64,000 nt of DNA from a virus (IMGVR_UViG_3300026442_000101); one strand, 5' to 3'; positions 43,536-58,735 are shown, counted from the first letter of the stretch. The notes: a model not told the origin generated them from the sequence alone. Program-made: numbers and translations.

Positions 43536-44786
43536 TTACCAGCGGCGACCGCCACGGCCACCACGTTCACGGTCACGATCGCGGTCATCGCGACGGTAAT
43601 CCCGATCACGATCCCGATCGTCACGACGAGAGTCGCGGTCACGGTCACGTCCACGATCGTCACGCTCGTCGCGACGACCACCCAGCAGGTCCTTCAGAGA
43701 ACCCTTGCCACTACGGCCTTGATCACGGCTAGGCTCGCGAGAATCGCGACGATCCTCACGAACGTCCCGGCGATCGCTACGCCCAAGTCGACGATCACGC
43801 TCGTCGTCCGTTTCTTCCCAAGGCAGGTCATCAACGACCCCCACCGCTTCACCACTTGCATCGTAAACAGATTCCTCTTCCTCATCTTCACGGCCGGTGT
43901 TGCCTGGCAGTGCCGGAACAGAAACGCCGTATTTCTTTGCAAATTCGCCGAAGCCGTCGAGAGCTGCGACCCAACCCATGCCGAACTTGAAACCTTCCAA
44001 ATGAGCGCAGGCTGGAGCGTGGAGTTCCAGCAGGCCATTCAGACGTTCGGTCAGCTTACGGAACGACAGCAGCAGGGAGTGGTAGTACGGAGCACTGCCA
44101 TCTTTCGAACCGCTGCTGTATGCCTTACGCTCTTCTTCATCACCCAGGATGTATTCGAGCACTGCGACCAAGAGCGCTTTGTCCTTGGTCTTACGCGGCA
44201 TCTTCACCCCGAAGAACTCGGAGGTATCGTCGGTATGCGCATCGTCCATGATCGGGAAGGATACATGGCAGGCACGCAGCGAGCCGTCGTCGGTCTTGTT
44301 CTTGAGGAACATGGTGAGCAGGTGTTTCTCAGGCGCCGAACCAACGGCATCCTTTACCACCTTGCGCATGGTGTCGACCGTTTTCTGGTCGGCATCAATC
44401 ACCTTCTTCAGGAACGCCGAGGCTTTGGCGGTCAGCGCTTTGTGGCGCTTAGGCTCAGCCGCCAGTTCGATCAACGCCATGGCCAATTCCTGAATGGTAA
44501 CCTTCAGGCGCTCGGTCATGTAGTTCTTGTTGGCATTCAGCACAGGCGATGGGCCTTCGCTGATTTGCTCTGCCAGTGGGTGGAATGCAGTGCGATCCGT
44601 CCAGTTACCTTCGCGGATGAACTTCTCGGTCGGGAAGACCAGGCGACTGCCGTTCAGACGTACCGGCTTGACTGCACCGTTGGCCATGTAGGAACAGGTG
44701 CCGCCACCGTCTGCGTCAAAGACACCGACATCAGCCAGCTGTGGGATATACAGCTCATTATTGAGCGTGTCAATTTTGCTCGACAT
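43536..44786 (-). CDS. Conserved nucleus-block protein (phiKZ gp70-like) with Arg/Asp-rich C-tail
   Basis: 416 aa; synteny; last ~90 aa RDRDRDSRRDDRDRDRDYRRDD... Confidence 0.65.
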   Translation of the reverse strand: MSSKIDTLNNELYIPQLADVGVFDADGGGTCSYMANGAVKPVRLNGSRLVFPTEKFIREGNWTDRTAFHPLAEQISEGPSPVLNANKNYMTERLKVTIQELAMALIELAAEPKRHKALTAKASAFLKKVIDADQKTVDTMRKVVKDAVGSAPEKHLLTMFLKNKTDDGSLRACHVSFPIMDDAHTDDTSEFFGVKMPRKTKDKALLVAVLEYILGDEEERKAYSSGSKDGSAPYYHSLLLSFRKLTERLNGLLELHAPACAHLEGFKFGMGWVAALDGFGEFAKKYGVSVPALPGNTGREDEEEESVYDASGEAVGVVDDLPWEETDDERDRRLGRSDRRDVREDRRDSREPSRDQGRSGKGSLKDLLGGRRDERDDRGRDRDRDSRRDDRDRDRDYRRDDRDRDRERGGRGGRRW

Positions 44787-44815
44787 CTTTGGACCTTCTA
44801 TTTAAAGAAGCCCTG

Positions 44816-46438
44816 TTACCAGGACTTCGGCTTATCGGAGGGGCGACCACGACCACCGCGATCGCGGTCATCACGATCGTCACGACGGGTGTCGCGATCG
44901 TCACGGCGACGGTCATCGCCACGACCTTCTTGACGACGCGCTTCACCACCTAGGATGATGCGTGGTTCGTCTACATGGCTCTTGTTCTGACCCGAGCGGA
45001 CGTTGGCCAGACCGGCCGACAGATCAATGATGCCCTTGGCGAGCTGATCTACCGAACGGAGACTATTGTCCATGGTCATTGCACAGCAGCCGCTGGCGAA
45101 GGCCGGGAAGCGGAAGCTCTGCTCGCGACCACCGTCCAGCTTGATACGGATACGGATCTCGGTATCGATGTTCGCATCAATTGTAGCTTCTATATCGAAC
45201 ATGCCGCCTTTGGATACTTCTTCAAGCAGTACGTGCTCGCACTGATCTTCGAAGTACGCGAAGTTGGCCTTTACCGACAACCCTTCGACGAACGGAGCGA
45301 TCGGGCCGGTAAGCACCTTGTACTCGCCTTGACGGGCAAGGTTGGTGATTCGCAGGCTCTTCACTTCCGAATACATCGAATTGATCATGATGCCCGGCAG
45401 AGTGTTCGCAATGATGGTAGCTGCGATACATTCGTTGGTATCTTCGTTCCAGCTGTTGAGCTGGTTGAAGTCTTCACGGGACGACTTGTACGGCTTGAAG
45501 CCGAGCTGTTCGTCTTCGTTGAAGTCCGGGTTCATGTCCATCAGTTCGCCGAACGTGATGTAGCCGGAGGCCAGGATGTTCGAATCGCGCTTGATCGACT
45601 CGATGAACGGATCCTGTTCGATCTGGTTCTCTTGAACCTTATCGAGTGCCGAGGCGATGGTTTCTTCACGATCGTCATCACCCAGATACGCGGACGACGG
45701 CGCACCACTTGCTGCGACGTAAGCATTCAAGCTACGCTGCATGAAGTTGGTCGGACTGTTGTTCGACAGGTTCGACGCGCGCAGGGCGGTACTGAAAGCA
45801 CCCGACAGGTTGACAACATCGCTGTTGTTCTGGCGGATATGTGCACCGAACGAAGACTCAGAACCACCGCGACGGAAGATGTCGGTTGGGCGCAGAGTCA
45901 CTGGACGATCGTCACCCTTACCGGCACGGGCACCAGCTTGGCCGGTTAGACCAGAGCGGCGCAGGATCTGGTCATGCTGCTGAATACGCGGCTGCCAGAC
46001 CTGCTTGTTCCGCCCATCTTCACGGAAGTTCGACAGGGTCATGTGAACCCTGGTGATCTGGTTGAAGTACATCCTCATGTTCCGGTCGAACCGAATGGTG
46101 CGGTTCGAGATCTTCGACAGCTCAGCATGGTCGGTGTAACCTACGATGTACTCGTAAGTCTTACCGCCGGAACGGTCCAGGGTGGCAACTACCATCCCGA
46201 ACATGATGCGCTTCTGATCCCAGCCGTTGTCGATGAACGACTTATGTTTCCGGCGGGACGATGGACCGATAAGTGGAGACGCCACCTTCGCCAGACGGCT
46301 GGAGGTAAGACGTGTGCCGCCCTCGGTAGCCTCGGCGAACAGGTCGATGTGGTGACTCTTGAGCGAGTGGTCGATCGGGCGGATAAGTGGAGCATCCGTA
46401 CCCGCTTGCTCAATGAACACCAGTTTAATCAGTTCCAT
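44816..46438 (-). CDS. Probable phage-nucleus import protein PicA/Imp1 (phiKZ gp69-like)
   Basis: 540 aa directly after the gp68-like gene; N-terminal LVFIEQAGTDAPLIRP; Arg/Asp C-tail; assignment mainly by synteny and size. Confidence 0.65.
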   Translation of the reverse strand: MELIKLVFIEQAGTDAPLIRPIDHSLKSHHIDLFAEATEGGTRLTSSRLAKVASPLIGPSSRRKHKSFIDNGWDQKRIMFGMVVATLDRSGGKTYEYIVGYTDHAELSKISNRTIRFDRNMRMYFNQITRVHMTLSNFREDGRNKQVWQPRIQQHDQILRRSGLTGQAGARAGKGDDRPVTLRPTDIFRRGGSESSFGAHIRQNNSDVVNLSGAFSTALRASNLSNNSPTNFMQRSLNAYVAASGAPSSAYLGDDDREETIASALDKVQENQIEQDPFIESIKRDSNILASGYITFGELMDMNPDFNEDEQLGFKPYKSSREDFNQLNSWNEDTNECIAATIIANTLPGIMINSMYSEVKSLRITNLARQGEYKVLTGPIAPFVEGLSVKANFAYFEDQCEHVLLEEVSKGGMFDIEATIDANIDTEIRIRIKLDGGREQSFRFPAFASGCCAMTMDNSLRSVDQLAKGIIDLSAGLANVRSGQNKSHVDEPRIILGGEARRQEGRGDDRRRDDRDTRRDDRDDRDRGGRGRPSDKPKSW

Positions 46439-46468
46439 CTTCTACTCCTTAAATCGCAGCAATTTGAC

Positions 46469-48061
46469 TCAGCGTTGGAATTCGTCGATCTTGATAAGCA
46501 ATTCGGCGAGTTCATCACGCAGGTCGGTGGATGGTTCGAGACGACGCGTTACGTCCACTCGGTTGTAATCGCGGCCTAGCTCTTTACAGCAGTGTGGTTC
46601 CCAGTCATATTTGAAGAACGCCACTGCGACCTCCTCGACATCACGTACCCCTACGTTGGTCGAAGTGGTAAGCTCGCTACGTTTACCTTCTGGAATCTTG
46701 TACGGATAGATGATATCCAACATCTCCAGGTTCTTTGCGTTGATCTTCAAACGAGAGATCGGTGTCGGTAACTCACCTTCCTCGAGATAGATCGGTGTTG
46801 CGGTCAGCAGCACAGCCAGCTGTTTGAATCCCCAATTCCACAGCACTGACTGAGCGATACCCATCGTGGTCAGCAGCGTCTTCCGGTCAAACATCTCCGG
46901 GACACAACCTGCGATTACGGTGGACATTACCCAGATGCAGAGCGTGATCTGCTCATCGCGAGGATCGAAACGATCCAGGTTCTGAGTTTGGCTCACGCAT
47001 TTCTCGATCCGTTCCGGTGTAAGGTTCGGGTCGATGTCGGCAGCTGCCTTCAGATACTTCATGACGTACAGTCGGAAGATCGCCAAGTCGCCGGTACTGA
47101 TCGACTCTTTCATCTTGAAGACACACCAGACTGATCCATTCGAATCGTCCATCATGCCTTCATTGTCGGTTTTCTTCCGGATGTTGTTTCCGAAAGCGGC
47201 CGGCATGCGGTTGTTCTTACCGCAGACGTAGTTGTACACGATCTTCATCAGGTGGTCTTTATCGGTCAGGGCCGACAGAGGCGCCACCGACAGTTTCCTG
47301 ATCGTTGCCAGAGAAACCAGGTACTTCGGAATCTCTTCGCTGGAAAGGTGCTGGAACACGATTGGAAGCTCGAAGTCATCCTCATCAATGTTCGCCCGAA
47401 CGTAAGTTTCCAAACGCGCGAATGCCGGGCAGTCGAACAGCCGGGAACGCTCCAGCAATTGGAACGCCTCGTACTCTTTCCACTTAGCTCCTTTCTCTTT
47501 ACCGACGATCGGCAGGTACGCGCCCCAGACCGGAACCATGCACCGAGTACCCAGAGCCGCTGCGGTAAGATCGATGTACTCGCTCTTACGGTAGGTACGC
47601 TCCATGTAGATCGGCGTGATCTTATCGGTCGTTTCGTACTTGTCCGACAGTTCTGGCGGCAGCTTGATCTTCGGGTTGTTGACCACGTATTCACGCAGGT
47701 CTTCGAACAGCACGATATCAAAGATGCCGGTCACTACCTCGGCCAGCAAGCTGTCCAAGGTATCAGATTCCGTTTCGGATGGTGCGAATTCCCCGTAGGT
47801 ATCGAGAATGGTTTCCAGACGAGCGTAGCACTCGTACAGAGCCAACTGTTTATCTTTGGGGAGTCTTGCGATGAATTCGTTGATCTCCTCGAACAGTTCT
47901 GTTCTATGCCCGAGCTCGAACGAATCGTCTTGCCTGATGGCACCAGGTTTAGCATTGGCGTAGCCACCGGCGTTTACGACGATCTCGTTCTCCCCTTCGT
48001 GACTGATCGTCACCATGGAGAAACTTCGTTTCGTATACCCCGAGATTGTAAATTCCATCAA
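46469..48061 (-). CDS. Probable nvRNAP sigma-like subunit (phiKZ gp68-like)
   Basis: 530 aa; position between gp67- and gp69-like genes; ERTYRKSEYIDL segment; synteny. Confidence 0.7.
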   Translation of the reverse strand: MMEFTISGYTKRSFSMVTISHEGENEIVVNAGGYANAKPGAIRQDDSFELGHRTELFEEINEFIARLPKDKQLALYECYARLETILDTYGEFAPSETESDTLDSLLAEVVTGIFDIVLFEDLREYVVNNPKIKLPPELSDKYETTDKITPIYMERTYRKSEYIDLTAAALGTRCMVPVWGAYLPIVGKEKGAKWKEYEAFQLLERSRLFDCPAFARLETYVRANIDEDDFELPIVFQHLSSEEIPKYLVSLATIRKLSVAPLSALTDKDHLMKIVYNYVCGKNNRMPAAFGNNIRKKTDNEGMMDDSNGSVWCVFKMKESISTGDLAIFRLYVMKYLKAAADIDPNLTPERIEKCVSQTQNLDRFDPRDEQITLCIWVMSTVIAGCVPEMFDRKTLLTTMGIAQSVLWNWGFKQLAVLLTATPIYLEEGELPTPISRLKINAKNLEMLDIIYPYKIPEGKRSELTTSTNVGVRDVEEVAVAFFKYDWEPHCCKELGRDYNRVDVTRRLEPSTDLRDELAELLIKIDEFQR

Positions 48062-48094
48062 CCCGCTCCGGTTTGTTTACTGCGCTTCTATTAC

Positions 48095-48123
48095 ATAATG
48101 TGGCATTGTAGTAATTTACACTG
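48095..48123 (-). promoter_or_regulatory. Putative promoter CAGTGTAAATTACTACAATGCCACATTAT
   Basis: Near-identical 29-bp element at 58736-58764; lies 33 nt before the ATG. Confidence 0.7.
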
Positions 48124-48140
48124 CCGCGGCACAAAGCCCC

Positions 48141-48168
48141 GCTACATGCGCCTTTCAGCGCATGTAGC
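48141..48168 (-). terminator. Hairpin after ChmC-like gene
   Basis: 11-bp stem GCTACATGCGC/GCGCATGTAGC; weak U-tract. Confidence 0.55.
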
Positions 48169-48183
48169 TTGGCCGGATTGCCA

Positions 48184-48975
48184 CTAGAACGGAATGTCGT
48201 CGTCGAAGCCGTTGTCATCCATCGCTGGTACTGGGACCGATGGTGCTTGGCGCTGCTGTTGCTGGTTGTTCTGGTAGTTGCTACCGCCACCGCCGTTATT
48301 GCGCTGCTGGTAACCACCCTGACCACCCTGACCACCGCCTTGGGCGCGCTGCATGTTTTCCAGGCGGCGACGCTTCTGGAACTCAGGCTCTTGCCAGTTC
48401 ACGGTGTAGTGGGTGAAGTAAACTTCGGTCAGAGCTTCGGCCCAGGCGATTGCCGCGATCGAGGAACTGATCTTGACATCAACCGGCTGACCATTCTGCA
48501 TGATCGGGTGGAACTCGTCGCTCGCGAACTCGAAGATCACGTCGTCTTTGCCCTTGGCGGTAACGCCGAAGGTAATCACGCCGTCTTCGCGCTTGGCGAC
48601 TTGGAAACGGGAGATGATCATGCGCTCTTTCGAACGGACGTTCTTACCGGCGTCTTTGTCCCACATGAATGGGTGACCCCAGTTGTCCATTTCGAATTCG
48701 CACGGCACCTTAGACTTGGCGACGTTGATGATCAGGTTCATCAGCGATTTGAATGGACGTGGCGCCATCGGCGTCTCGATCTTGATCGGATAACCTTCTT
48801 TGCCGTTGCGGCCTTCGGTTTTGATACCGAGGTCAGCTTCCAGCACCGGGTTGTTTTCCGACTTCTTCAGTCGCAGCATCGACTGACGACCGTCAGGACG
48901 CAGGGCCGGGCCATACAGGCGCAGCTTGGTGTCGTCTACCGCGGTAGGGTCTTTGCGTGGTTTTTGCTCAGCCAT
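48184..48975 (-). CDS. Probable ChmC/Imp6-like nucleic-acid-binding protein (phiKZ gp67-like) with G/Q/N linker and SSB-type DDDIPF tip
   Basis: Start reset to ATG 48975 (GAGG); C-terminus GGGQGGQGGYQQRNNGGGGSNYQNNQQQQ...GFDDDIPF; synteny before gp68-like gene. Confidence 0.65.
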   Translation of the reverse strand: MAEQKPRKDPTAVDDTKLRLYGPALRPDGRQSMLRLKKSENNPVLEADLGIKTEGRNGKEGYPIKIETPMAPRPFKSLMNLIINVAKSKVPCEFEMDNWGHPFMWDKDAGKNVRSKERMIISRFQVAKREDGVITFGVTAKGKDDVIFEFASDEFHPIMQNGQPVDVKISSSIAAIAWAEALTEVYFTHYTVNWQEPEFQKRRRLENMQRAQGGGQGGQGGYQQRNNGGGGSNYQNNQQQQRQAPSVPVPAMDDNGFDDDIPF

Positions 48976-49029
48976 TGTAGCGCCTCGTTGGGGGATATTG
49001 GACATTCCATTGTCCGGGTCAATAACAAA

Positions 49030-49887
49030 TTACGACCGATACAGGTCTTTCACCAACATCTCAAGAGCAGGGTCGCGACGTTCCACAATAGTGGCGATCA
49101 CGAAGTCCTTGGTTGATGCAGGAGACCAGTTGTTCTTCTGGGCTACTTCGAGGACCCGTTTACGGATCTTGATCGGCATAGGCGAGAAGACCACCCCATC
49201 TCCAAACATCTGCAAGGTCATCCTATCAAATGGGATGTTAGGAGTCTCCTTACCGTTCTGGAGTTTGGTGTTCCACATAAGAGGTGTCTTCACAGAGCCC
49301 GTATGCGACTCTAGGAGCGCGAGAGAACTGAACCGGTACCTTTGTAGCAGGTCGATCGGATAGTGCGTCAGGATGAGCCCGTCGCCCTGTATATCGGGGA
49401 AATCGGTGACGTACTGGCTGATAGGCGTGGTCGCCTTGAAATCTTCGCGCAGATACTTAATCACCGCCGTCTCCAACTGCCAGTAGAACTTCTGAGCTGG
49501 CGTCTGGATAGGTTTGATGAGAGCCTTGCTGAACTTACGCCCCACGTCGATATGGGTGCAGTAATAAGTAGCAACGGCACAACGACCGTCACTGTGTTCA
49601 GCAACCACTGACTCGATAGTGCGGATCTCAGAAGCGATAGCCTCAGCGATCGTGTACTCTTCCAGCAGGGGGCGCTGTGAGGCCTCCAGCGTGTTGTACA
49701 GGTTGCGCAGCAATGTCCTGACGTTGAGCATCAGGATATCACGACGGCCGATCTCAGGAGCGTCTGTGGGCGCCTCAGGTAGGATACCAATTGCCGACTC
49801 GATCGCCAAGCTGGTCGGGATCGAAATGGGAAACTGACCCATCGTCCGGTCAGCAAGTAGTTCTCTCGAATAATCATCGGCAGCCAC
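49030..49887 (-). CDS. Conserved core protein (gp66-like; possible PIN/5'-nuclease fold)
   Basis: 285 aa; DILMLNVRTL and LTHYPIDLL segments; fold is inference. Confidence 0.55.
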   Translation of the reverse strand: MAADDYSRELLADRTMGQFPISIPTSLAIESAIGILPEAPTDAPEIGRRDILMLNVRTLLRNLYNTLEASQRPLLEEYTIAEAIASEIRTIESVVAEHSDGRCAVATYYCTHIDVGRKFSKALIKPIQTPAQKFYWQLETAVIKYLREDFKATTPISQYVTDFPDIQGDGLILTHYPIDLLQRYRFSSLALLESHTGSVKTPLMWNTKLQNGKETPNIPFDRMTLQMFGDGVVFSPMPIKIRKRVLEVAQKNNWSPASTKDFVIATIVERRDPALEMLVKDLYRS

Positions 49888-49905
49888 GGGTGACGCTCCT
49901 TATAA

Positions 49906-51078
49906 TCAGGCAGCCAACTCCATCTCGATGATCTTCATGACTTCTTCGTCAGTCACGTCAGAGAACCTTGGGAGCATCAGCTCTTTAAGGTTGTCTTCAC
50001 GGATGGACGTCATCACTGGAGTGTCGATCAGGTTGTCAGTCGTCTCGGCTCGTTCTTCGACCTCGATGACTTTGGTGCTGATGTTGAAATGGGGGAATAG
50101 GTTCTTGACGCGACTCAAGGCAGCATAAGCTTCGTCTTCTCGACTGAGCTTCAGACGGAAGTGGCTACCGTCAGGATGTTTGGCTACCTTATTAATCGCA
50201 CCCACGGTTTCGGCGTACGACTTACCTACCACATCTAGAGTCATCCATGTGGTGGCTGCGGTGTTAACCACAAAGGTTTCTTCAAGCACACTCTCGGTCG
50301 GCGACCAGGTGAAGAAGTAGAAGCCTTTGTCGTGTTCTTCGTTATGCCGCAAACGCTCGACTGAGCCGGGCACACGGATCTTTCCATTAGCCTCAGGATG
50401 GTGATGGTGGCCAATGATGATTCGATCGCGCACGATACCTTCGTACCGTTCTTCCAGGTGAGTGGCGATGCTGCGCACAGGTTCCTGGAATGTGAACATG
50501 CCGTGCATAACGGCGAAGTCCACCTTATCTAGCCCCTTCTCCTTCATCAAGCTGACGACTTGTTTCCACGTCTTGTTAGCATCGTGGTTAACTTCGTCTT
50601 GGATAAAGAGGAAGGTTGGGCCGCCCGGGAAGAGTTCATCAATGACGATGTTCTCGTAGTACCGGATATCTGCATTGGACTGCGTACTCTTGTTAGAGTG
50701 CAGGAACCAACGGGACTGGCGGTTGTCATGACTTGGCGTACCTTCGAGGATCAGCCATATCACGCTCTTACGTTTAGCCTGTCTGGACTTTCGGTCCATC
50801 CAGTCGCTGATGAGCAGAGCATCATCGCTATCGTGAGCTAGGCGCTTATCGAATAAGTCACCCGATACGATAACGACGTCGACTACCTCCATCACTTCAT
50901 CGGTCATGATGGCATCGCACGTCTCGATGACCTTACGGGTAGGCACCCGCCCATGACCCATGTGCACGTCACTGATGCAGAGGAAGTTCAGGCAGCCGCT
51001 AGGTGCGGCTACCGGAGTCCACTTGTTCAGATTGGCGAACTTAAGTTTGTGCTCAGAGTTCGTACTCTTCATCTTCAT
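49906..51078 (-). CDS. Mre11/SbcD-like metallophosphoesterase nuclease
   Basis: SDVHMGH, SGDLFD, GTPSHD, HG, GHHH, PGSVERL; start reset to ATG 51078. Confidence 0.85.
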   Translation of the reverse strand: MKMKSTNSEHKLKFANLNKWTPVAAPSGCLNFLCISDVHMGHGRVPTRKVIETCDAIMTDEVMEVVDVVIVSGDLFDKRLAHDSDDALLISDWMDRKSRQAKRKSVIWLILEGTPSHDNRQSRWFLHSNKSTQSNADIRYYENIVIDELFPGGPTFLFIQDEVNHDANKTWKQVVSLMKEKGLDKVDFAVMHGMFTFQEPVRSIATHLEERYEGIVRDRIIIGHHHHPEANGKIRVPGSVERLRHNEEHDKGFYFFTWSPTESVLEETFVVNTAATTWMTLDVVGKSYAETVGAINKVAKHPDGSHFRLKLSREDEAYAALSRVKNLFPHFNISTKVIEVEERAETTDNLIDTPVMTSIREDNLKELMLPRFSDVTDEEVMKIIEMELAA

Positions 51079-51730
51079 CGATTCCAGCATCGGGCTTCGG
51101 CAAGGCAGCTGGAGTGGCCTTAGCGTCACGTCGGTTGAGTTCGGCTTCCACATCAGCCGCCATCTCACCGAGAAGCTCGCTCAATGGTAGATTGTAGCGA
51201 TGGTAGATGTGGACCAGCGTCACCAAGTGACGGGTACGCTCTACGTGTTCGGTCTTCGGTTCGAGAATCTCTACCAGCTCGTTCTCTACCTCGAAGGCTT
51301 TACGTTGATCGCCGTTATCGAACATGTGGCCTTGCATATCCACCAGCTGGTGGATAGAGACCATGCCTTCCGCGCCTTTCTTGTTTCGAGGCGGGATGTC
51401 CATAAATAAAGGCGGGGCGGTAAAGAGTAACTGACCCCTGGCGTCGGCTACGCTCAGCGAGTTGTTCAACCCACCGGCGAGGTTAAACCAGATGCCCGGT
51501 TCTGCTGGATCTTTGGGATCGTTCTTCACCCACTTGCGCAGGATCGGCAGCAGTACGTTGACGAAGTAAGGCTCGGGGACATAACGCTGACGCCTTGCGC
51601 TTTCTTCGTTGATCTCGGATACGGCACCATCCATGGACTGGAGGCCGGCCATGATCATTTCCTGATAGATCTTCGAGCCCTTGTCTACTGGCTGCTTCTT
51701 ATCTTCAGGCTTTTTCGTGGGTTCGGACAT
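51053..51730 (-). CDS. Conserved hypothetical protein
   Basis: 225 aa from ATG 51730 (AGGAG RBS). Confidence 0.65.
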   Translation of the reverse strand: MSEPTKKPEDKKQPVDKGSKIYQEMIMAGLQSMDGAVSEINEESARRQRYVPEPYFVNVLLPILRKWVKNDPKDPAEPGIWFNLAGGLNNSLSVADARGQLLFTAPPLFMDIPPRNKKGAEGMVSIHQLVDMQGHMFDNGDQRKAFEVENELVEILEPKTEHVERTRHLVTLVHIYHRYNLPLSELLGEMAADVEAELNRRDAKATPAALPKPDAGIDEDEEYEL

Positions 51731-51772
51731 AAAGACTCCTAATGCCCGGCCGGAGCCGGGCACCGCAGATGG

Positions 51773-52285
51773 TTACTTCTGCTCGACGCCGTTGGCGATG
51801 GCCAGCAGGTCGGCACCTTCTTGCGCGGCCGCGTCAACGGCTTTGCTGGTGGTGATGTACCAGGTTTCGTTGACGACGGTGGCTTTGGCCAGGACGAAGC
51901 TGCTCAGGGCTTCCAGCTTCTGCGCAGGGTTGCGTTCGTCGGCAACGATCTCGGTCCAGGCTGGAGCGTCAGCATCGGTCTGCTGCAGCTGGTAGAAGCG
52001 GACGCCCAGCTCTTCTTCGGTCTTCTGGAAGACCTGAGCTTTGATGCAGCCAGGGAACGGCGCCTTGACCAGGATCAGGCGGTTCATGTCCTTCTCCAGA
52101 CGCTCACGGTCATTGGTCAGGGCACGGGCCAGGCCGGAGACGACGACCTGGGCAAGCAGGGTCTGGTTTTCAGTGATGTTCAGGAACTTCGACACCGCAC
52201 CGGCGATGTAGTGATCCAGCTGTTCCGGGGTTTCCGGGAAGAGGATGATTTTCGGTTCTTCGATGTGGGCTTGAGCTTCGGACAT
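51773..52285 (-). CDS. Hypothetical protein
   Basis: 170 aa with strong phage codon bias and AAGG RBS. Confidence 0.65.
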   Translation of the reverse strand: MSEAQAHIEEPKIILFPETPEQLDHYIAGAVSKFLNITENQTLLAQVVVSGLARALTNDRERLEKDMNRLILVKAPFPGCIKAQVFQKTEEELGVRFYQLQQTDADAPAWTEIVADERNPAQKLEALSSFVLAKATVVNETWYITTSKAVDAAAQEGADLLAIANGVEQK

Positions 52286-52294
52286 GATCTTACC

Positions 52295-52717
52295 TTAGGC
52301 GGCGTTGTAAACGGTCACTTCGTTCGTCATGTTGACGATCGACTTGAGTTTGGAATTATTGATCGACAGGGAGTACCCAACGCTGGTCGGGTTAGTGTTG
52401 ATGCTCTCTCCGTCGCTTACTATTGCGTCAATTTGTAAAGAAATACCTGGATCAGTATCGTCGGCTTTGATCTCGACCTGAACGCTGGTAAAGAACTTCT
52501 GGAGATATTCCTGAAGATCGAGCTGTAGTTCACGGGTGACGTCAATAGCGTCGTCCCCGTACATCTGGATGATCTTGGTCAGTGATGAGATCTGACCGAC
52601 GTAGAACGTGGTTTGACTGTGTTTAGAAAAGAAGTAGCAGCACATCAGGTAATCGACCTTACGGTCAACGTCTGCAATAAGGCCTTCTTTTCCGAGGGTG
52701 ATCACATCGACAGACAT
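52295..52717 (-). CDS. Conserved chimallivirus core protein
   Basis: 140 aa; YFFSKHSQT..GQISSL motif; position in nucleus block. Confidence 0.6.
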   Translation of the reverse strand: MSVDVITLGKEGLIADVDRKVDYLMCCYFFSKHSQTTFYVGQISSLTKIIQMYGDDAIDVTRELQLDLQEYLQKFFTSVQVEIKADDTDPGISLQIDAIVSDGESINTNPTSVGYSLSINNSKLKSIVNMTNEVTVYNAA

Positions 52718-52755
52718 GGCTATTACCCGGCAGTGGTGGACATCCTATTGGGAAC

Positions 52756-52797
52756 AAAAAAAAAGAAGTGAGGGGATGGTGGCTTTCGCCACCATCC
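52756..52797 (-). terminator. Intrinsic terminator
   Basis: Stem GGATGGTGGC/GCCACCATCC (52774-52797) and T9 tract on minus strand. Confidence 0.85.
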
Positions 52798-52803
52798 TTT
52801 CGG

Positions 52804-53268
52804 TCAGTACACTGGATAGTGAACTGCAACCATACCACCATCTTTAGACATACGAATGGTTGTAAGCTTTCCGTTTCGCATGGTGTAATTGAGGACGACA
52901 CGGTTGTCGGCTGAGTGCAGCAATTCGATCAGGTTGCGATAGAGCTTATTCGGCTCCAGCTGTTCGATGAGTCCGGCACGCCAGAGTTCTACCACCTTAT
53001 CATAAGCTGCGTCGCCTGTCTCACGATAGTACTTCGAGGCATCGTACCAGAAGGTCCGCTTGAACGGCACACCCTTCTTGATGTAGCCGTAGTGGATGCA
53101 GAGCTCGCCGACTTTCTTAGGCTGGCCGTAATCGGTAGTCCAACGGAAGTTCTCGATACCTTCTGCGGTAAAGAGGTCCTCGATATCTCGCCTATCCTTG
53201 ACCTTGATGTGGGATTCGATCTCACGGTAGGCTGCCTGGAATCTTTCCATTGATTTTTCCACAACCAC
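52804..53268 (-). CDS. Hypothetical protein, member 3 of tandem paralogue trio
   Basis: ~154 aa; shares DR..I, F....Y/F...G and Y.+R..KL....S..G+...P patterns with the two upstream ORFs. Confidence 0.65.
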   Translation of the reverse strand: MVVEKSMERFQAAYREIESHIKVKDRRDIEDLFTAEGIENFRWTTDYGQPKKVGELCIHYGYIKKGVPFKRTFWYDASKYYRETGDAAYDKVVELWRAGLIEQLEPNKLYRNLIELLHSADNRVVLNYTMRNGKLTTIRMSKDGGMVAVHYPVY

Positions 53269-53272
53269 TTCC

Positions 53273-53743
53273 TTATTTAGGCCAGCGGACCTTTACCAGG
53301 CCTTTATAACGAGACAGAGTGGACTGCACCAACTTGTCGTCCCTGAGCTGATAGTTGAATACCGCGTCATCAACGTTATCATCGCCCATGTGCATAACAC
53401 CGAACAGAACTTCAAGCAACTGGGGGTTGTCAACATCAGCAAACTTGCCGGTGGCGTCTAGGTTGCCGATGGTTTCGAATACATTCCGACCGGTATCACG
53501 CCAGAACGTGGTGTCGTCGATATAGAAGCATCGTTCGGTTTCGCGCCGTTTGGTCTTGAAGAATACCGAAACTTCGATCGCGTTATACCGATTTCCGAAA
53601 GCACTGCTGCGGAAAGTTACCGACGTGATGTCAGGTTTCTTCAACTCTTTAAGTAGTTCTCTGATGATGGTGCGGTCATGGATAGTGAAGTGGTTGAACT
53701 TGGTATTGAAGTAAGCTTCGAATGCTTCTACGTGCTTATTCAC
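53273..53743 (-). CDS. Hypothetical protein, member 2 of tandem paralogue trio
   Basis: 156 aa; VEAFEAYFNTKFNHFTIHDRTIIRELLKELKKP. Confidence 0.7.
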   Translation of the reverse strand: MNKHVEAFEAYFNTKFNHFTIHDRTIIRELLKELKKPDITSVTFRSSAFGNRYNAIEVSVFFKTKRRETERCFYIDDTTFWRDTGRNVFETIGNLDATGKFADVDNPQLLEVLFGVMHMGDDNVDDAVFNYQLRDDKLVQSTLSRYKGLVKVRWPK

Positions 53744-53756
53744 GCGGGTAGTCCTT

Positions 53757-54239
53757 TTAGTCCAGTGGATACATGGTGCGAATCATGCCGTTGCGGCTAT
53801 GAAGGTAAATATAGATCAGTCTATCGCCAATCAAATGCCATTGCAGGTAGCAATCGTTGGTCATGAATAAATCCTTGCGCGCACCCATGGTAGCTCGCAG
53901 GGCGTGCGTCAAACCTTTACAGAGGTTCTCAACAAGGTTGGGTGTCTTCAGCAGATCTTCTAGGGCGTTGGTAACGTCCTGACCTTCTGCCTTGAAGTAC
54001 TTCTCGCTGGAGAATTGGAAATGTCTTCCACGACCTTCCAGCGGTGTCTCGTACTGGATGTGGAGACTCTTGAGGTCAGAATTTATCGCCAACCCTCCGT
54101 GAGTCCACCACTTTACAAACTTGTATTCAGGCTTCTTGACGTTAGAGATCATTGCTTCGATCTCTGGCCGGTCATTCAGCTTGAAGTGATCACGATTCTC
54201 GTTGTAGTAAGCTTCCAGTGTCTCTATGCAGGTACCCAC
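53757..54239 (-). CDS. Hypothetical protein, member 1 of tandem paralogue trio
   Basis: 160 aa; IETLEAYYNENRDHFKLNDRPEIEAMISNVKKP; AGGAG RBS. Confidence 0.7.
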   Translation of the reverse strand: MGTCIETLEAYYNENRDHFKLNDRPEIEAMISNVKKPEYKFVKWWTHGGLAINSDLKSLHIQYETPLEGRGRHFQFSSEKYFKAEGQDVTNALEDLLKTPNLVENLCKGLTHALRATMGARKDLFMTNDCYLQWHLIGDRLIYIYLHSRNGMIRTMYPLD

Positions 54240-54258
54240 ACCGTTCTCCTAAGGTCAA

Positions 54259-54285
54259 GGGCATAAAGGCGGGATTACTCCCGCC
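54259..54285 (-). terminator. Short hairpin with TATGCCC variant
   Basis: Stem GGCGGGA/TCCCGCC (54268-54285). Confidence 0.5.
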
Positions 54286-54292
54286 GATATGT

Positions 54293-54913
54293 TTACAGGG
54301 TCTTTCTAAGTGGGCTGGTTGGATCTTGTTTACCTTGATCCAGAAGGTCATACAGCACCTTCCACGAATCCCTGACAGTGTGCTTCTCGACAACGCTCAG
54401 TGGAGCATCGCCGTGTTCGTCACAAACCCCCATGAATGTAGTGAACCGGTCTTCACCATCCACCACTTCATGCGCGCCGTTCATTACTTCACGATACGGC
54501 GTATGGTCTCTGCCAAGTGCTCCAGGCTCCTCGTCTTCGTACAACCGTCCATAGCCGTCCAGGCGCCCCAGTTGGTAGAGGCGGCGGATCCGGGTATCAG
54601 CCATGATGTATTTCCGGTTGACAGACTTGGCATTCTGAGCAGCGCTGAGAGACATGATCGGACCAATCCGATCTTCTTCCCAACGTTTGTGGAAGCGATC
54701 CCGCATCCCTTCGACTTTGTCGCGCAGCCGACCTAGATCGAAGCTCGCCAATTTCTCACTTGCGCTACGCAGGAAGTCGGAAGCATAGCTACCGGCCGAT
54801 CGCATTGCGCTGTCCATTCGTTCGCGAAGAAAGCTCAAGTCATCGCGACTCATGATACCGTGAGTACTGGCGTGGATGACATCATCGTCATCCGTGTCCA
54901 TCAGGTACGCCAT
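54293..54913 (-). CDS. Conserved core protein downstream of RNAP beta' (possibly phiKZ gp59/Imp3-like)
   Basis: 206 aa from ATG 54913 (GGGAG RBS); KYIMADTRIRRLY...LDGY motif; numbering by synteny only. Confidence 0.6.
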   Translation of the reverse strand: MAYLMDTDDDDVIHASTHGIMSRDDLSFLRERMDSAMRSAGSYASDFLRSASEKLASFDLGRLRDKVEGMRDRFHKRWEEDRIGPIMSLSAAQNAKSVNRKYIMADTRIRRLYQLGRLDGYGRLYEDEEPGALGRDHTPYREVMNGAHEVVDGEDRFTTFMGVCDEHGDAPLSVVEKHTVRDSWKVLYDLLDQGKQDPTSPLRKTL

Positions 54914-54914
54914 G

Positions 54915-56423
54915 TTATCTCCCCATTGGTACAGACAGATCGTCACCTTCCTCAAGACGCGCGTTGATTGTCGAGAGAACCGGCGAAGGAATCGCCGCGT
55001 GACCACCCACCCTGAACGACTTCTTGAAGTCCATGAAACCGGTCGAAGGTTTCATACGCGCCATAGCCTCAGCCATTGCGTTGTCCAGAGCCAGCTGACC
55101 GGACATGTAGTCACCGTCAAAGTCAGCGTTAGGTGCTACCAGGCACAGAACCGAAATGCTGGTACTAAGCTGGGTAGGGTCTCGTTTAATTCGGTCGATG
55201 TAGAAGAACTGAGTAGATCCTCGCTTCAACGACGGGAACCGGGTGAACGTGCACGGAATGCCGCGACCACCAGGCGATTCTGCAATCAGCTCATCGAAGA
55301 TCCTTTCCAGGGTAGGATGAGTGCGCAGGGTATTATCGTAGATCAGCGTGAGCATTTCGTTCGGAGTATACTCGTTACTCCGGCTCAGCTTATTCGCGAT
55401 ATGTAGTTTGAAGGTCAGCACGGACGCACCCCATGGAGTTTCCAGGGATTCGTGGTCGTGCGGTTTGTGGTTCGATGTGATTACGGTCCGGAAGGTGAAG
55501 TGTGGACTCACCCCAAAGACCAGCTTACGCAGAATACCCTTCTTATCGAAGATCTTCAGATGTTCGTTTCCGGAGTAGTACAGCGTGAGCTTATTGGTGG
55601 CTCTCGCTACACGGCTTTCCAGATCCGTGAGGCTGGTGCGTCTGGCCGATGTTACGTTAGCCAGGTTGATCAGCGCATTGAGCGCTGGTGCCATCTTAGG
55701 GTCTACGTAGGTGCGCTCACCCACATCCTCGATGATGAAGCCGATCTTGGATGGGAACGGGATATGCTTACACCAGACCAGGCGGCGGTGAATGTCCAGG
55801 AACCGATTGGTCGACGCACCCTTGGCAGCTGTGACGTAATGACGGCTGGCGGTTAGGCCATCCATGATCTTGTCAAAGTTGTTGTAGAAGTGAGTCAGGC
55901 CACGCTTACCGCCTGAGATGTTCAGGAGGATCTGCTCTTCCTTGCTGTTCAGCTTTGGCGGCCGATACTTGGGGTCGAGTAGATAGTCGATCGCACTGAA
56001 GCCGCTCTTGGTAAAGCGTACTTTCAGCAAGCGATAGATCGTCAGGTTCATGAAGGCCGGAAGACCATCAGGTGCTCTTACCCAGACGATTGGTTCGATG
56101 GATTGTTCGGTGATCGGTAGAACCTCGAAGCCGCAATGACGACATTTGTCATTCATGCGACTCCCGCCTTTAGTCTTACGACACGGGCAGGACGGTACGT
56201 TGGAGAACACGTCACCATCGTAGCGAGAATACACCAGATCGTTGAAACGGGCTTTGCCGGCGTCGGTGCTCAGATCCAGGTCATTAGCCAGGATAGGCGA
56301 AACATCCAGCTTGGTGAAGATCGCGTCAAGATCCTCGATGATCGGATAGATACCCCGACGTCCCTGATATCGTGGTCTGGGTTCGTAGATATCGTAAGTG
56401 ATCAGTTCATGCATGGTGCCCAT
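54915..56423 (-). CDS. Non-virion RNA polymerase beta' N-part with catalytic site (phiKZ gp55-56.1-like), uninterrupted
   Basis: CPC...CRHC Zn finger, RFPSL, catalytic NADFDGD. Confidence 0.92.
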   Translation of the reverse strand: MGTMHELITYDIYEPRPRYQGRRGIYPIIEDLDAIFTKLDVSPILANDLDLSTDAGKARFNDLVYSRYDGDVFSNVPSCPCRKTKGGSRMNDKCRHCGFEVLPITEQSIEPIVWVRAPDGLPAFMNLTIYRLLKVRFTKSGFSAIDYLLDPKYRPPKLNSKEEQILLNISGGKRGLTHFYNNFDKIMDGLTASRHYVTAAKGASTNRFLDIHRRLVWCKHIPFPSKIGFIIEDVGERTYVDPKMAPALNALINLANVTSARRTSLTDLESRVARATNKLTLYYSGNEHLKIFDKKGILRKLVFGVSPHFTFRTVITSNHKPHDHESLETPWGASVLTFKLHIANKLSRSNEYTPNEMLTLIYDNTLRTHPTLERIFDELIAESPGGRGIPCTFTRFPSLKRGSTQFFYIDRIKRDPTQLSTSISVLCLVAPNADFDGDYMSGQLALDNAMAEAMARMKPSTGFMDFKKSFRVGGHAAIPSPVLSTINARLEEGDDLSVPMGR

Positions 56424-56432
56424 CTCCGAAGT

Positions 56433-56470
56433 AAAAGAAAAAGAAAGAGGAGGTGGGAATCCCCACCTCC
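56433..56470 (-). terminator. Intrinsic terminator after chimallin
   Basis: Stem GGAGGTGGG/CCCACCTCC (56449-56470), long T/C tract downstream on minus strand. Confidence 0.85.
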
Positions 56471-56494
56471 CTTCTCACTTCAGCAGATCACGAC

Positions 56495-58561
56495 TTAGTA
56501 GTCGCGGCCACCGAACAGACCACTGCCACCGCGGCGATCGTTGCGGTCGCGGCTGTCGCGGTCGGAACCACGGCGGCGTACGACACCAACGTCCGAAGCG
56601 GACAGGCTGGAGTAGCGGCTGTTGCCTGCGTGGCGACGTGCGTTCAGACCGTCGGACGAGGTTTGGTAGCTGGACATGTTGGCTGCATCGATTGCGAGCG
56701 ACAGCGCCTCGATGTAGTCAGGGTCGAAGGCCAGCATTTCGGCGGTGTCAACCACGCGGATGCCAGGTACGACTTGCTGCTGCATGCGGTAGCGCTCGGA
56801 CAGGTTGTAGCCCAGGCCGTGGTAGGTGTCCTCGAAGGTGTACTGGAAGTCAGCGGCACGATCCGCGTTCTTCTCACCGTACGAGGTCAGCATCGACTGA
56901 ACGTTCCACTCGCGCAGGTCGCGGGTGTTGCCCTTGTCGTCAACCCAGGTGCCGATCAGCACGCGAGTACCCATGGATTCAACCGGCACGCGATCGGAGT
57001 CGCTGCCAACCAGTTTCTTCCATTCGCGGCGGAAGTGGCCGTCGGTCAGAACGTCGGCGCTGTCGAACAGCACGCCAACCAGGGCTTTGACTTCGTCGCG
57101 GTCTTTCGAGGTAGCGATACGCTCGAAGATGCTCAGAACCCAGGACTTCTCGCCGGAGGACGGGATGGTCAGACCGAATGCCAGGTCAGGCAGAACGGTG
57201 ATGTCCAGGTAGTCCAGCAGCTCGTCGTCGGTCATGTTCTGACTGACGTCGTCGTAGACCTTGGCCAGGTCCTTGTCCGGGTGCAGCAACATCAGGTTCT
57301 CGATGTGGCTGGTCGGAGCCATGGTGCCACCGCCTGGCGCAGCGATTGCGGCGCGTGGGCGCAGCAGGTTGGCCGAGCGGTTGTCGTTCGACTGAACGGC
57401 GATCTGAGCCAGCAGCAATTGTGCCAGTTCCAGACTGAACGGGAAGTTCCCCGCCGGAGCGATGGAGTTCACGTTCATGACGCCCTGCCAGAACGGCTCG
57501 AGCTGGTCACGGTTGTTGCGACCACGGCCACGGCCACGGCGGCGACCACGATCTTCACCACCCGAGCTATCCACCAGCACCAGGTCGAGACCGGCACGGA
57601 TTTCGCCCATCGGGGTACGATCGTAACGCTCGTCGTCGTCACGGCTTGCTTCGCTGTAGTACAGCGTCGCGGTCACGTCGGAACGGATCTGCAGACCGCT
57701 GGAGTCTTCGCCCGGTTTGCCCGAGTTGTCCCAGCTGGTTTCCAGACGCGCGCCTTTGCCGATCATGTTCGGGTTCAGGCGGATCTGGCTGTTACGCTTG
57801 CCACTGATGCGATCGACGATGTTCTCGCGAACGCCGCACAGCGCGTCCAGAACGTTGTCGAAGATGCGGTCGATGACCGGCGATGGGGTCTTGCTGTCGA
57901 CGTCGCCCAGCTTGCCGACGACGCTGGTGAGCAGAACCTGCTTGCCCACGACCTGGATCTTCGAGTTGACCAGCAGGCCACGCACTTGATCTTCGATCGC
58001 TTCGCGATACGCCTTGGTGCCCAGCTGATCTTCCGGCAGAACCAGAGCGTCGTAGCTGTCGCCGCGGTCGGTCGACTGGCGGGTTTGCACGCCGTTGGCG
58101 TTCTCGATGGTCAGCACGTACACCAGGGTGTAGTTGCTGGAACCGATGGTGGTTGGCAGAACGACCAGAACCGAGCTCAGGCTGGAGCGAGCAAGCGCAC
58201 CGTCCAGAGGCAGGATCTTGAAGCGATCACGGCGGATGGCTTCCGGCACGTTCGGCTTGTCGAAGGTTTTGTTCGCATCGAATGCCTGGATCAGGCGCTG
58301 GAGGGCTACGTCGCCCAGACCGCCGGAGGTTGGACGCACGTTGAACGCACGGCCCATGTCGGCGATGGTGAAACCACGTTGCTTGCCATCATCTTCATCA
58401 TCGCGGCGGTCACGGCCACGACGCTCTTCACGATCGCCGGAGCGGGTATCGCGATCGCTGCTGCGGCGCTCTTCGCGCGGCTGTTCACGACGATCATCAC
58501 CGGAGCCGGACTTGCTGCCGCCTTCACCCAGTTCGAAATCGTTGTCTTGGTTGTCGCTCAT
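56495..58561 (-). CDS. chmA: Chimallin, phage nuclear shell protein
   Basis: 688 aa immediately upstream of RNAP beta' (canonical block); RVLIGTWVDDKGNTRDLRE and LAFGLTIPSSG segments; own promoter and terminator; highly-expressed codon bias. Confidence 0.85.
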   Translation of the reverse strand: MSDNQDNDFELGEGGSKSGSGDDRREQPREERRSSDRDTRSGDREERRGRDRRDDEDDGKQRGFTIADMGRAFNVRPTSGGLGDVALQRLIQAFDANKTFDKPNVPEAIRRDRFKILPLDGALARSSLSSVLVVLPTTIGSSNYTLVYVLTIENANGVQTRQSTDRGDSYDALVLPEDQLGTKAYREAIEDQVRGLLVNSKIQVVGKQVLLTSVVGKLGDVDSKTPSPVIDRIFDNVLDALCGVRENIVDRISGKRNSQIRLNPNMIGKGARLETSWDNSGKPGEDSSGLQIRSDVTATLYYSEASRDDDERYDRTPMGEIRAGLDLVLVDSSGGEDRGRRRGRGRGRNNRDQLEPFWQGVMNVNSIAPAGNFPFSLELAQLLLAQIAVQSNDNRSANLLRPRAAIAAPGGGTMAPTSHIENLMLLHPDKDLAKVYDDVSQNMTDDELLDYLDITVLPDLAFGLTIPSSGEKSWVLSIFERIATSKDRDEVKALVGVLFDSADVLTDGHFRREWKKLVGSDSDRVPVESMGTRVLIGTWVDDKGNTRDLREWNVQSMLTSYGEKNADRAADFQYTFEDTYHGLGYNLSERYRMQQQVVPGIRVVDTAEMLAFDPDYIEALSLAIDAANMSSYQTSSDGLNARRHAGNSRYSSLSASDVGVVRRRGSDRDSRDRNDRRGGSGLFGGRDY

Positions 58562-58735
58562 ACTTCACTCCTAAATGTGCACATGTGCGAAATGATTAAT
58601 GTACAGCTTCCCCTATCGCATCGGGGATTCCCGTTAGCTAACCCACCGTCGTGAGCCATACAGGCTTTTGACTTCCCGGCGTACCACCGGGTATCGTTGG
58701 GCGAATGTTCAACATCATGCTGCTCACTCATCAGG

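Follow-up and report, generated by a model that had tools for sequence, protein, structure and literature searches.

Matched Arg/Asp mixed-charge segments on chimallin and two shell-associated proteins of an uncultured nucleus-forming phage

Why do three proteins encoded in one gene block of a jumbo phage share an unusual disordered chemistry that the other proteins around them lack? The question is raised by the viral stretch IMGVR_UViG_3300026442_000101 (64,000 nt, 54% GC; hereafter the window), which derives from a divergent, uncultured chimallivirus, the family of nucleus-forming jumbo phages. The proteins are chimallin (ChmA), the major protein of the phage nuclear shell; PicA (also Imp1), the chimallivirus protein importer; and a homologue of phiKZ gp70 and phiPA3 gp64, referred to below as gp70. 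An original prediction had pointed to Arg/Asp (RD) low-complexity segments in all three, and the translations of the window match the sequences that it quoted. Five such segments are considered here, given in window coordinates with amino acid (aa) positions and, where available, the predicted local distance difference test score (pLDDT).

43539-43889, minus strand: disordered C tail of gp70, aa 300-416 (pLDDT <50)
44819-44956, minus strand: disordered C tail of PicA, aa 495-540, made up of an RD spacer, RGGRGR and a tip ending in KPKSW
56498-56581, minus strand: C-terminal RD linker of ChmA, aa 661-679, followed by the tip SGLFGGRDY, aa 680-688 (pLDDT <50 over 664-688)
57503-57565, minus strand: beta-hairpin loop of ChmA, aa 333-353, an Arg/Gly core with acidic flanks (pLDDT 33-40)
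58376-58561, minus strand: N tail of ChmA, aa 1-62, of mixed R/D/E charge (pLDDT <40)

Arg/Asp segments on three proteins of the window

That no other protein of the window carries such tails had also been claimed, and this holds both in a six-frame scan and among 51 genes called with a self-trained codon-usage model. At a threshold of at least 12 Arg plus Asp residues per 20 aa, the scan of the 64 kb returned the open reading frames (ORFs) of ChmA, PicA and gp70 only. The gene calls contain 19 disorder-like stretches of 25 aa or more. In the six that belong to ChmA, PicA and gp70, Arg and Asp make up a fraction (R+D) of 0.29-0.60; the remaining 13, which are rich in Lys/Glu, Gly, Ala/Lys or Pro/Glu, do not exceed 0.20 (Mann-Whitney p = 4e-5). 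The source of positive charge differs as well, with an Arg to Lys count of 83:7 in the segments of the three proteins versus 25:51 in the other disordered segments (Fisher p = 2e-16). AlphaFold2 assigns a pLDDT below 50 to aa 300-365 and 369-416 of gp70 and to aa 1-82, 333-353, 636-648 and 664-688 of ChmA. The phiPA3 homologues of ChmA, PicA, gp70 and ChmC have all been localised to the shell (PMC10643120), and the chance that three genes drawn at random from 51 would all lie within these four is 2e-4. The RD signature is not peculiar to this phage, being present also in the cultured phages PCH45, Xoo-sp14, RsoM3USA and pVa-21.

With a fraction of charged residues (FCR) of 0.43-0.65, the tails are strong polyampholytes, and the charges are well mixed, the patterning parameter kappa being 0.05-0.15 in the three tails and the ChmA C linker, near or below the values of shuffled controls. 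The gp70 tail has an FCR of 0.65, a net charge per residue (NCPR) of -0.05 and a kappa of 0.13; its RD-dense part, aa 322-416, holds R33 D24 E7 K2 (net +4). For the PicA tail (R14 D11, NCPR +0.04, net +3) kappa is 0.05, a value equalled or undercut by 1% of charge-position shuffles. The ChmA N tail is net negative (R13 D13 E8 K2, NCPR -0.10, net -6) and the ChmA C linker net positive (R9 D5 K0, NCPR +0.14, net +4). The ChmA loop, net +3, departs from this pattern in that its charge is blocky (kappa 0.52 versus 0.23 in shuffles). Clusters of the RGG/RG kind occur in each protein: RGGRGGRR at aa 408-415 of gp70, RGGRGR at aa 527-532 of PicA and RGRGRGR in the ChmA loop. The summed Gln, Asn, Met and Pro content (Q+N+M+P) is at most 0.13 in the three RD tails, unlike the tail of the ChmC type, in which an N/G-rich stretch of some 40 residues leads into an S/D/E-rich end.

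At the DNA level the tails are richer in GC than the window (0.62-0.71 versus 0.54), and 95% of their Arg codons are CGT or CGC, versus a background of 66%. Tandem Repeats Finder (TRF) detects weak periodicities of 6, 12, 21 and 33 nt in the tail DNA. The 28 RD/DR dipeptides of the gp70 tail are coded by 11 different hexamers, so these periodicities do not reflect one recently expanded unit, and a recent expansion of a single hexamer was rejected on this ground. Compared with a relative that is 92-95% identical (IMG/VR 3300042136_000006), the tails are only 87% identical and carry all of the insertions and deletions of gp70, PicA and ChmA, while their composition is kept. Such behaviour is typical of disordered regions in which composition is under constraint and sequence is not. 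Throughout the window's clade, the gp70 tails stay within an NCPR of -0.01 to -0.06.

The positions of the ChmA segments can be read against the solved chimallin of phage 201phi2-1, in which an N tail (1-47) is disordered and dispensable for assembly and incorporation and is followed by an N-terminal segment (NTS, 48-61), a loop (307-319) is unresolved, and the two C-terminal segments CTS1 (590-611) and CTS2 (622-631) are joined by an unresolved linker (612-621) (PMC9365700). The ChmA N tail of the window precedes a conserved NTS-like motif, GFTIADMG (aa 63-70, 58352-58375), and corresponds by position to the 201phi2-1 N tail. The RD loop forms the tip of a hairpin between strands 313-329 and 358-369 and aligns with the 201phi2-1 loop; the RD linker and its aromatic tip can be equated with the CTS1-CTS2 linker and CTS2 by position only. 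RD chemistry has thus been acquired at all three sites: N tail, hairpin loop and the residues ahead of the tip. When the loops of L012-L056 are aligned (loci are numbered L and genomes G), the centre of the loop is seen to be conserved, being an aromatic-Gly pair (YG, WG or FG) in phages whose segments are of the uncharged type described below, and F-G/S-x-R-R-R-R in the window's clade. In the window and its closest relative the aromatic residue has been lost and the sequence is RGRGRGR.

Short motifs punctuate the gp70 tail, which runs from an acidic stretch through LPW (43818-43826), an RD spacer, SLKDLL (aa 363-368, 43683-43700, minus strand) and a second RD spacer to an RGG-RGG-R-R-W tip (43539-43565). 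Both LPW and a motif of the form S-[LIVM]-x-[DE]-[LIF]-[LM] recur in the window's clade, in Pseudomonas phage DT01 and in the phiKZ-like clade, i.e., in both of the tail chemistries compared below, which argues that the gp70 tail is more than a pure spacer. The extreme C-termini of gp70 and PicA also tend to agree. Both end in Trp in 12 of 13 loci of the window's clade, and both are changed in the thirteenth (L013); both end in Leu (or Ile) in the phiKZ-like clade and in Ile in L026. The end residues do not match in several other lineages, and the matching of the two tips is suggestive only.

Two chemistries among related phages

By tblastn, ChmA was found in only 14 records, all below 30% identity, and orthologues were therefore sought through synteny. 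An alignment search with the gp66-like protein of the block yielded 36 IMG/VR loci that hold ChmA, Imp6 (ChmC), PicA and gp70 together, to which we added nine cultured phages from their GenBank records, for a comparison of about 33 lineages overall. Tails were cut at alignment columns of the window proteins, and in distant lineages the tail boundaries depend on very divergent alignments.

Across 33 lineages the gp70 tail is bimodal, with a summed Arg, Asp and Glu content (R+D+E) of either at least 0.39 or at most 0.12. In the R/D/E type (R+D+E 0.39-0.63, Q+N+M+P at most 0.11) are the window's clade of 13 loci, DT01, ParM-25, PCH45, Xoo-sp14, pVa-21 and RsoM3USA. The Q/N/M/P type, or Q type (R+D+E at most 0.12, Q+N+M+P at least 0.30), comprises the phiKZ-like clade including PA7, L026, L043-47, SA002, Eowyn and pEa54; in phiKZ itself the tails of gp70 and of gp69, the PicA homologue, are rich in Gln, Met, Asn and Pro. 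The N tail, loop and C linker of ChmA match the chemistry of gp70 in almost every lineage in which they can be read, with weak exceptions in ParM-25 (N tail) and DT01 (C linker). For PicA the agreement with gp70 extends to most lineages in which the PicA tail has 24 aa or more, and it is looser in those branches of the window's clade that are poor in RD.

The Imp6/ChmC-like protein provides a comparison within the same gene block. Its tail (48187-48378) is rich in Gly, Gln and Asn, has an R+D fraction of 0.12 and ends in DDDIPF, and it is the only protein of the block to fit the ChmC-type N/G-rich tail. In all 32 lineages this tail keeps its G/N/Q character and an acidic-aromatic tip, with R+D+E of 0.07-0.20, and it never switches. 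The variants of the tip, among them DDIPF, DVMAF and EDIPDF, resemble that of the bacterial single-stranded DNA-binding protein (SSB).

Base composition does not separate the two types. GC content overlaps between them (0.45-0.58 in RD lineages versus 0.39-0.58 in Q lineages, p = 0.37), and at the level of the family we rejected it as the cause of tail chemistry. A proteome-wide shift from Lys to Arg was rejected in the same way, as R/(R+K) in the protein cores is alike in both chemistries; in the window the gp70 core prefers Lys, with R/(R+K) of 0.36, while the tail has 33 Arg and 2 Lys. One difference outside the tails was seen in ChmA: in lineages of the RD type the acidity of its core is roughly double that of the others (mean NCPR -0.049 versus -0.024, p = 0.004; 22 lineages of the L012-L056 alignment, not corrected for phylogeny). 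The cores of PicA show no charge difference between the chemistries, and those of gp70 and Imp6 are marginal (p = 0.07 and 0.04).

Within the window's clade the change is graded. A tree of core proteins resolves three subclades, each with RD-rich members. One well-supported subclade holds both the RD-rich L022 and the RD-poor L019-21, which differ in all five segments: 0.57 versus 0.39 for gp70, 0.56 versus 0.22 for PicA, and 0.56-0.64 versus 0.16-0.30 for the three ChmA segments. Independent contrasts, which number only 12 and include some very short branches, gave r = 0.82 (p = 6e-4) between gp70 and PicA, r = 0.88 between the ChmA loop and C linker, and r of about 0.6 (p of about 0.03) between gp70 or PicA and the ChmA loop or C linker; none of the contrasts against Imp6 was significant. 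Beyond this clade, at least one switch of type falls inside the supported group of L026, Xoo-sp14 and pEa54. The original prediction had staked itself on the tails varying together among orthologues, and they do so, as two discrete chemistries across the family and by degrees within the clade. This co-variation supports a shared function or a shared constraint at the shell.

Specificity was also followed beyond the window, in the complete 243-kb genome of a relative from the L022 lineage (G004) and by a search for the DNA pattern coding DRDRD in five whole records. The pattern has 12 matches, of which at least 10 lie in ChmA or gp70; one match, in G003, was not placed against genes. The one match established as outside ChmA and gp70 lies in Serratia phage PCH45 (MN334766.1, 34150-34164). 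In G004, the strongest windows of Arg plus acidic residues belong to gp70 (20 of 20), PicA (17), ChmA (16) and one further protein, which also reaches 17. The last, a protein of 654 aa (L058:14639-16600, minus strand, equivalent to G004:34639-36600), has two folded parts joined by an RD/RG/Ser mixed-charge linker some 130 aa long. Its sole cultured homologue is in DT01, and its orthologues in G005-G008 are RD-rich or RG/Gly-rich, roughly following lineage. From these sequence features we regard it as a candidate for a further shell-associated protein. The window is collinear with 125-185 kb of G004, and the gene for the 654-aa protein would therefore fall outside it. A G004 ORF of 430 aa (145161-146450) with a moderately RD-rich window was dropped, as it looks like a non-coding frame.

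The gene block and its identities

The genes concerned lie on the minus strand in an order, from 58561 to 43536, that is the same as in phiKZ by matches to prokaryotic virus orthologous groups (PHROGs) and by synteny.

56495-58561, minus strand: ChmA, major nuclear shell protein, 688 aa (phrog_4795 and fold)
54915-56423, minus strand: nvRNAP beta subunit (non-virion RNA polymerase; phrog_2987)
between the nvRNAP beta subunit and the SbcD-like gene, minus strand: small genes
49906-51168, minus strand: SbcD-like gene
49030-49887, minus strand: gp66-like gene
48184-49005, minus strand: Imp6/ChmC-like gene (phrog_3284)
46469-48061, minus strand: gp68-like gene, an nvRNAP subunit (phrog_3209)
44816-46438, minus strand: PicA/Imp1, protein importer, 540 aa (phrog_3141, BLASTP)
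43536-44786, minus strand: gp70-like gene, 416 aa (phrog_3520, BLASTP)

The assignments of chimallin, PicA and gp70 made in the original prediction stand, since PHROG profiles, fold, BLASTP and synteny all agree. ChmA matches phrog_4795, annotated 'nuclear shell protein', over aa 106-665 (E 1.7e-24) and, by phmmer, 7SQT_A (E 6e-5). Its AlphaFold2 model has a predicted template modelling score (pTM) of 0.75, and the nine top Foldseek matches to solved structures are all chimallin/PhuN structures (E 5e-27 to 1e-21, target TM 0.75-0.82), with 7SQT, 7SQQ and 8FNE among the fold matches. The gene also sits where it would be expected, with nvRNAP beta directly downstream, an order kept in phiKZ and in 36 related loci. 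The closest cultured relative is DT01, at 28% identity, and the N-terminus used here is set by the first start codon of the ORF. A 733-aa ORF on the plus strand (56453-58654), antisense to chmA and longer than it, was rejected by codon statistics, with a codon-model score for chmA of 301, and by homology; it would be a trap for gene calling based on length.

PicA matches phrog_3141 over aa 1-486 (E 1.2e-63) and phiKZ gp69 over aa 4-447 (BLASTP 7e-23), and tblastn finds it in 141 chimallivirus records. The gp70-like protein matches phrog_3520 (E 1.2e-58) and phiKZ gp70 (BLASTP 1e-34). The order gp66-like, Imp6-like, gp68-like, PicA, gp70-like is identical to that of phiKZ, and gp70 adjoins PicA in 35 of 35 loci that hold both genes. 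The gp70 core (aa 1-295) is modelled with a pLDDT of about 90 as mixed helices and small sheets, and no convincing match to a solved structure was found by Foldseek (best E 0.18) or VIA-align (best Z 6.7, a value that lies within the tool's stated noise and belongs to a designed helical protein). Pfam has no family for ChmA, PicA or gp70, and a megablast search of the phage collection with the 17-kb block gave no match. An ORF of 114 aa on the opposite, plus strand (43142-43486) adjoins the end of gp70; it is conserved, with 53% identity in G004, and occupies the same place as a small opposite-strand gene annotated in phiKZ-like and other chimalliviruses.

Proposed cohesive tethers, rival explanations and meaning

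Which role could make the segments of three proteins change together? We favour, at a little less than even confidence, a reading in which disordered segments on the shell proteins of the phage nucleus form a set common to the family, of which the RD stretches are the form taken in this lineage, and serve as chemistry-matched, weakly cohesive tethers. The set consists of the ChmA N tail, hairpin loop and linker before the C-terminal tip together with the C tails of gp70 and PicA. The tails and loops of ChmA would be displayed on its lattice as a dense disordered layer. Being of like chemistry, the C tails of gp70 (about 115 aa) and PicA (about 45 aa) would adhere to this layer, and to the acidic surface of the lattice, by numerous weak contacts of Arg with Asp or Glu. 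In 201phi2-1 the lattice surface is acidic, and the greater acidity of the ChmA cores in RD-type lineages speaks for the same reading. Such association would keep gp70 and PicA at the shell along with their short docking motifs (LPW and SLKDLL in gp70, the C-terminal Trp in both). If the contacts need like with like, a change of chemistry in one partner would select the same change in the others, and it is this proposed cohesion that would account for the joint switching and the bimodality. Precedents are the disordered ChmC tail, which drives condensates (PMC11077065), and RD repeats, which condense in an Arg-dependent manner tunable by net charge (bioRxiv 10.1101/771592).

Several points weigh against such tethers. 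Well-mixed, near-neutral polyampholytes (kappa 0.05-0.17) are, by polymer theory, only weakly self-associating. The deep tree of the family is star-like, and the number of independent switches is therefore small and uncertain. The ChmA N tail correlates poorly in the independent contrasts, and within the clade the RD level also tracks local GC (r 0.5-0.7), a partial confounder. The RD-type phages PCH45, RsoM3USA and DT01 have little or no PicA tail, so that a PicA tail cannot be obligatory. In experiments on other chimalliviruses, the chimallin of 201phi2-1 could dispense with its N tail both in assembling the lattice and in being incorporated (PMC9365700), gp70 was not recovered in an Imp1 pull-down in E. 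coli, and a tag on the C-terminus left Imp1 localised but inactive (bioRxiv 10.1101/2024.03.27.586873).

The main rival is that the tails are inert: soluble, extended, protease-tolerant spacers between the real docking elements (the NTS and CTS of ChmA, LPW and SLKDLL of gp70, and the C-terminal tips), whose shared chemistry would come from a shared environment and shared constraints at the shell, e.g., high expression and the avoidance of sticking to DNA or RNA, helped by repeat slippage, with no contact between tails. We consider this possible, although less probable than cohesion. It would fit the short motifs conserved in both chemistries within tails that otherwise keep only their composition, the location of the ChmA RD segments at known linker positions and the dispensable N tail of 201phi2-1 (PMC9365700), and the low kappa and near-zero net charge, which are typical of non-sticky extended chains. 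The weak periodicities of 6, 12, 21 and 33 nt in the tail DNA fit as well, and the 95% use of CGT/CGC is what selection on highly expressed genes would give. It leaves unexplained, however, why the Imp6/ChmC tail, which is also at the shell, never switches, why disordered regions elsewhere in the genome are built on Lys, Gly, Ala or Pro, why the chemistry is bimodal where drift would be expected, and why gp70 and PicA are graded in parallel within the clade (r = 0.82).

Two further roles seem improbable to us, to a similar degree. In the first, which the original prediction had raised and our results disfavour, the shell would be a place where phage mRNA is captured or guided by the Arg-rich RGG tails and the ChmA loop in concert with ChmC. 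The RGG/RG clusters of all three proteins, with two RGG units in the tip of gp70, would suit such a function, as would the net positive charge of the loop and C linker, and ChmC at the same shell does bind mRNA (PMC11077065). But the tails of gp70 and PicA are net neutral or nearly so (NCPR -0.05 and +0.04, respectively), and that at the ChmA N-terminus is acidic; Pfam searches of PicA and gp70 and structure searches of the gp70 core found no RNA-binding domain. In many lineages, moreover, including the phiKZ-like clade, Eowyn and SA002, the orthologous segments are nearly uncharged Q/N/M/P stretches (R at most 0.05), and a role conserved across the family therefore cannot rest on contacts between Arg and RNA.

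In the second, a version of the pore-like phase also raised there, the import site would be a lattice gap occupied by the tails of PicA and gp70, which would form a selective, cohesive mesh resembling that of FG nucleoporins, into which cargo would have to partition. PicA does form one or two puncta at import sites and its cargo is recognised by surface patches and not by signal peptides (PMC11087766), matched cohesive tails would be in keeping with such a mesh, and tagging of the Imp1 C-terminus abolished activity without loss of localisation (bioRxiv 10.1101/2024.03.27.586873). Against this, PicA tails, at 30-50 aa, are short, and several phages all but lack them; ChmA carries the bulk of the RD mass and distributes it across the entire lattice, not at a punctum; and our analysis gave no link between cargo surfaces and tail chemistry. 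Finally, a mutational or compositional by-product with no selected role, whether by hexamer slippage or by GC-driven drift on unconstrained tails, is highly improbable: the weak short-period repeats found by TRF, the tail GC of 0.62-0.71 in a window of 0.54 and the tracking of GC by the RD level within the clade would agree with it, but the dipeptides use many synonymous hexamers in place of one expanded unit, charge balance is held in a narrow band across lineages, composition is far from the neutral codon-usage expectation, the two chemistries overlap fully in GC (p = 0.37) and RD enrichment is absent from the genome's other disordered regions.

The window's ChmA shares its fold with the chimallins of 201phi2-1 and Goslar (PMC9365700), keeps the NTS-like motif and the aromatic C-terminal tip, and places its RD segments at the N tail, the unresolved loop and, by position only, the CTS1-CTS2 linker. 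The chemistry is different, as the segments of the solved chimallins are uncharged and rich in Q/A/P/N whereas those of the window are polyampholytes of Arg with Asp or Glu; the window's N tail is also longer, and its loop has an Arg cluster. The tail of ChmC/Imp6, which forms condensates of RNA and protein (PMC11077065), is likewise a low-complexity tail on a shell-associated protein of the same gene block, and serves as a precedent for demonstrated collective behaviour. It differs in being N/G/Q-rich with an acidic tip and invariant across the family, where the window's tails are R/D-rich and of a switching kind.

The original prediction drew a parallel with the Arg-rich mixed-charge domains (R-MCDs) of the U1-70K type, whose length, Arg content and net charge tune condensation (Greig et al., bioRxiv 10.1101/771592; PMC9324279). 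The likeness lies in intermixed Arg and Asp/Glu, a preference for Arg over Lys, disorder and a nucleus-like compartment, and two hallmarks of R-MCDs, disorder with intermixed charge and positive charge borne by Arg, are present in the window's sequences, the ChmA loop being blocky instead. Net charge compares less plainly: it is positive in the RD-dense part of gp70, the PicA tail, the ChmA loop and the C linker, but slightly negative over the whole gp70 tail and negative in the ChmA N tail, and net negative charge abolished condensation in the eukaryotic study. On the other side there is no homology, the host of these segments is a bacterial virus, and they are shorter (20-115 aa). We know of no speckle-like body in phage nuclei.

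Bacterial SSB combines a folded core, a low-complexity linker and a short conserved C-terminal tip. PicA and gp70 resemble it in their layout of core, linker and tip, with an end residue shared between the two proteins in the window's clade. The parallel is limited in that the matching of tips is clear only in the window's clade, in the phiKZ-like clade (Leu/Leu) and in L026 (Ile/Ile).

In the literature on chimallin, PicA/Imp1, ChmB and ChmC we found no description of the PicA and gp70 tails, of the chemistry of the chimallin segments or of its matching. The architecture of the chimallin tails and the ChmC tail were already known; what appears to be new is the RD chemistry and its matching among shell proteins. 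To our knowledge no targeting determinant is known for PicA or for gp64/gp70, though both sit on the shell. The role of PicA in selective import and its puncta at the shell have been established for phiKZ, phiPA3 and Goslar (PMC11087766), and phiPA3 gp63 and gp64 localise to the shell (PMC10643120). The segments bear on two questions: how the chimallin lattice recruits and retains accessory proteins, and how import and export sites form. That the shell protein switches jointly with two partners while a third stays unchanged offers a concrete and cheaply testable hypothesis, as cultured phages of the RD type (PCH45, Xoo-sp14, pVa-21, RsoM3USA) can be compared with those of the Q type (phiKZ, phiPA3, 201phi2-1).

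A bolder extension of the tether reading, which we hold to be doubtful, is that the phage nucleus wears a two-dimensional, condensate-like disordered coat of chimallin tails and loops, whose chemistry would be an address code that chooses the accessory proteins recruited (gp70, PicA and others, e.g., the fourth protein of G004). A switch of code would then require the switch of all partners, and could make the shell components of different chimalliviruses incompatible in co-infection. Should the tails interact, bacterial viruses would have a parallel to the low-complexity domains, mixed-charge and polar, by which eukaryotes organise nuclear bodies and pores, and the tails would provide a sequence signature for predicting new shell-associated proteins.

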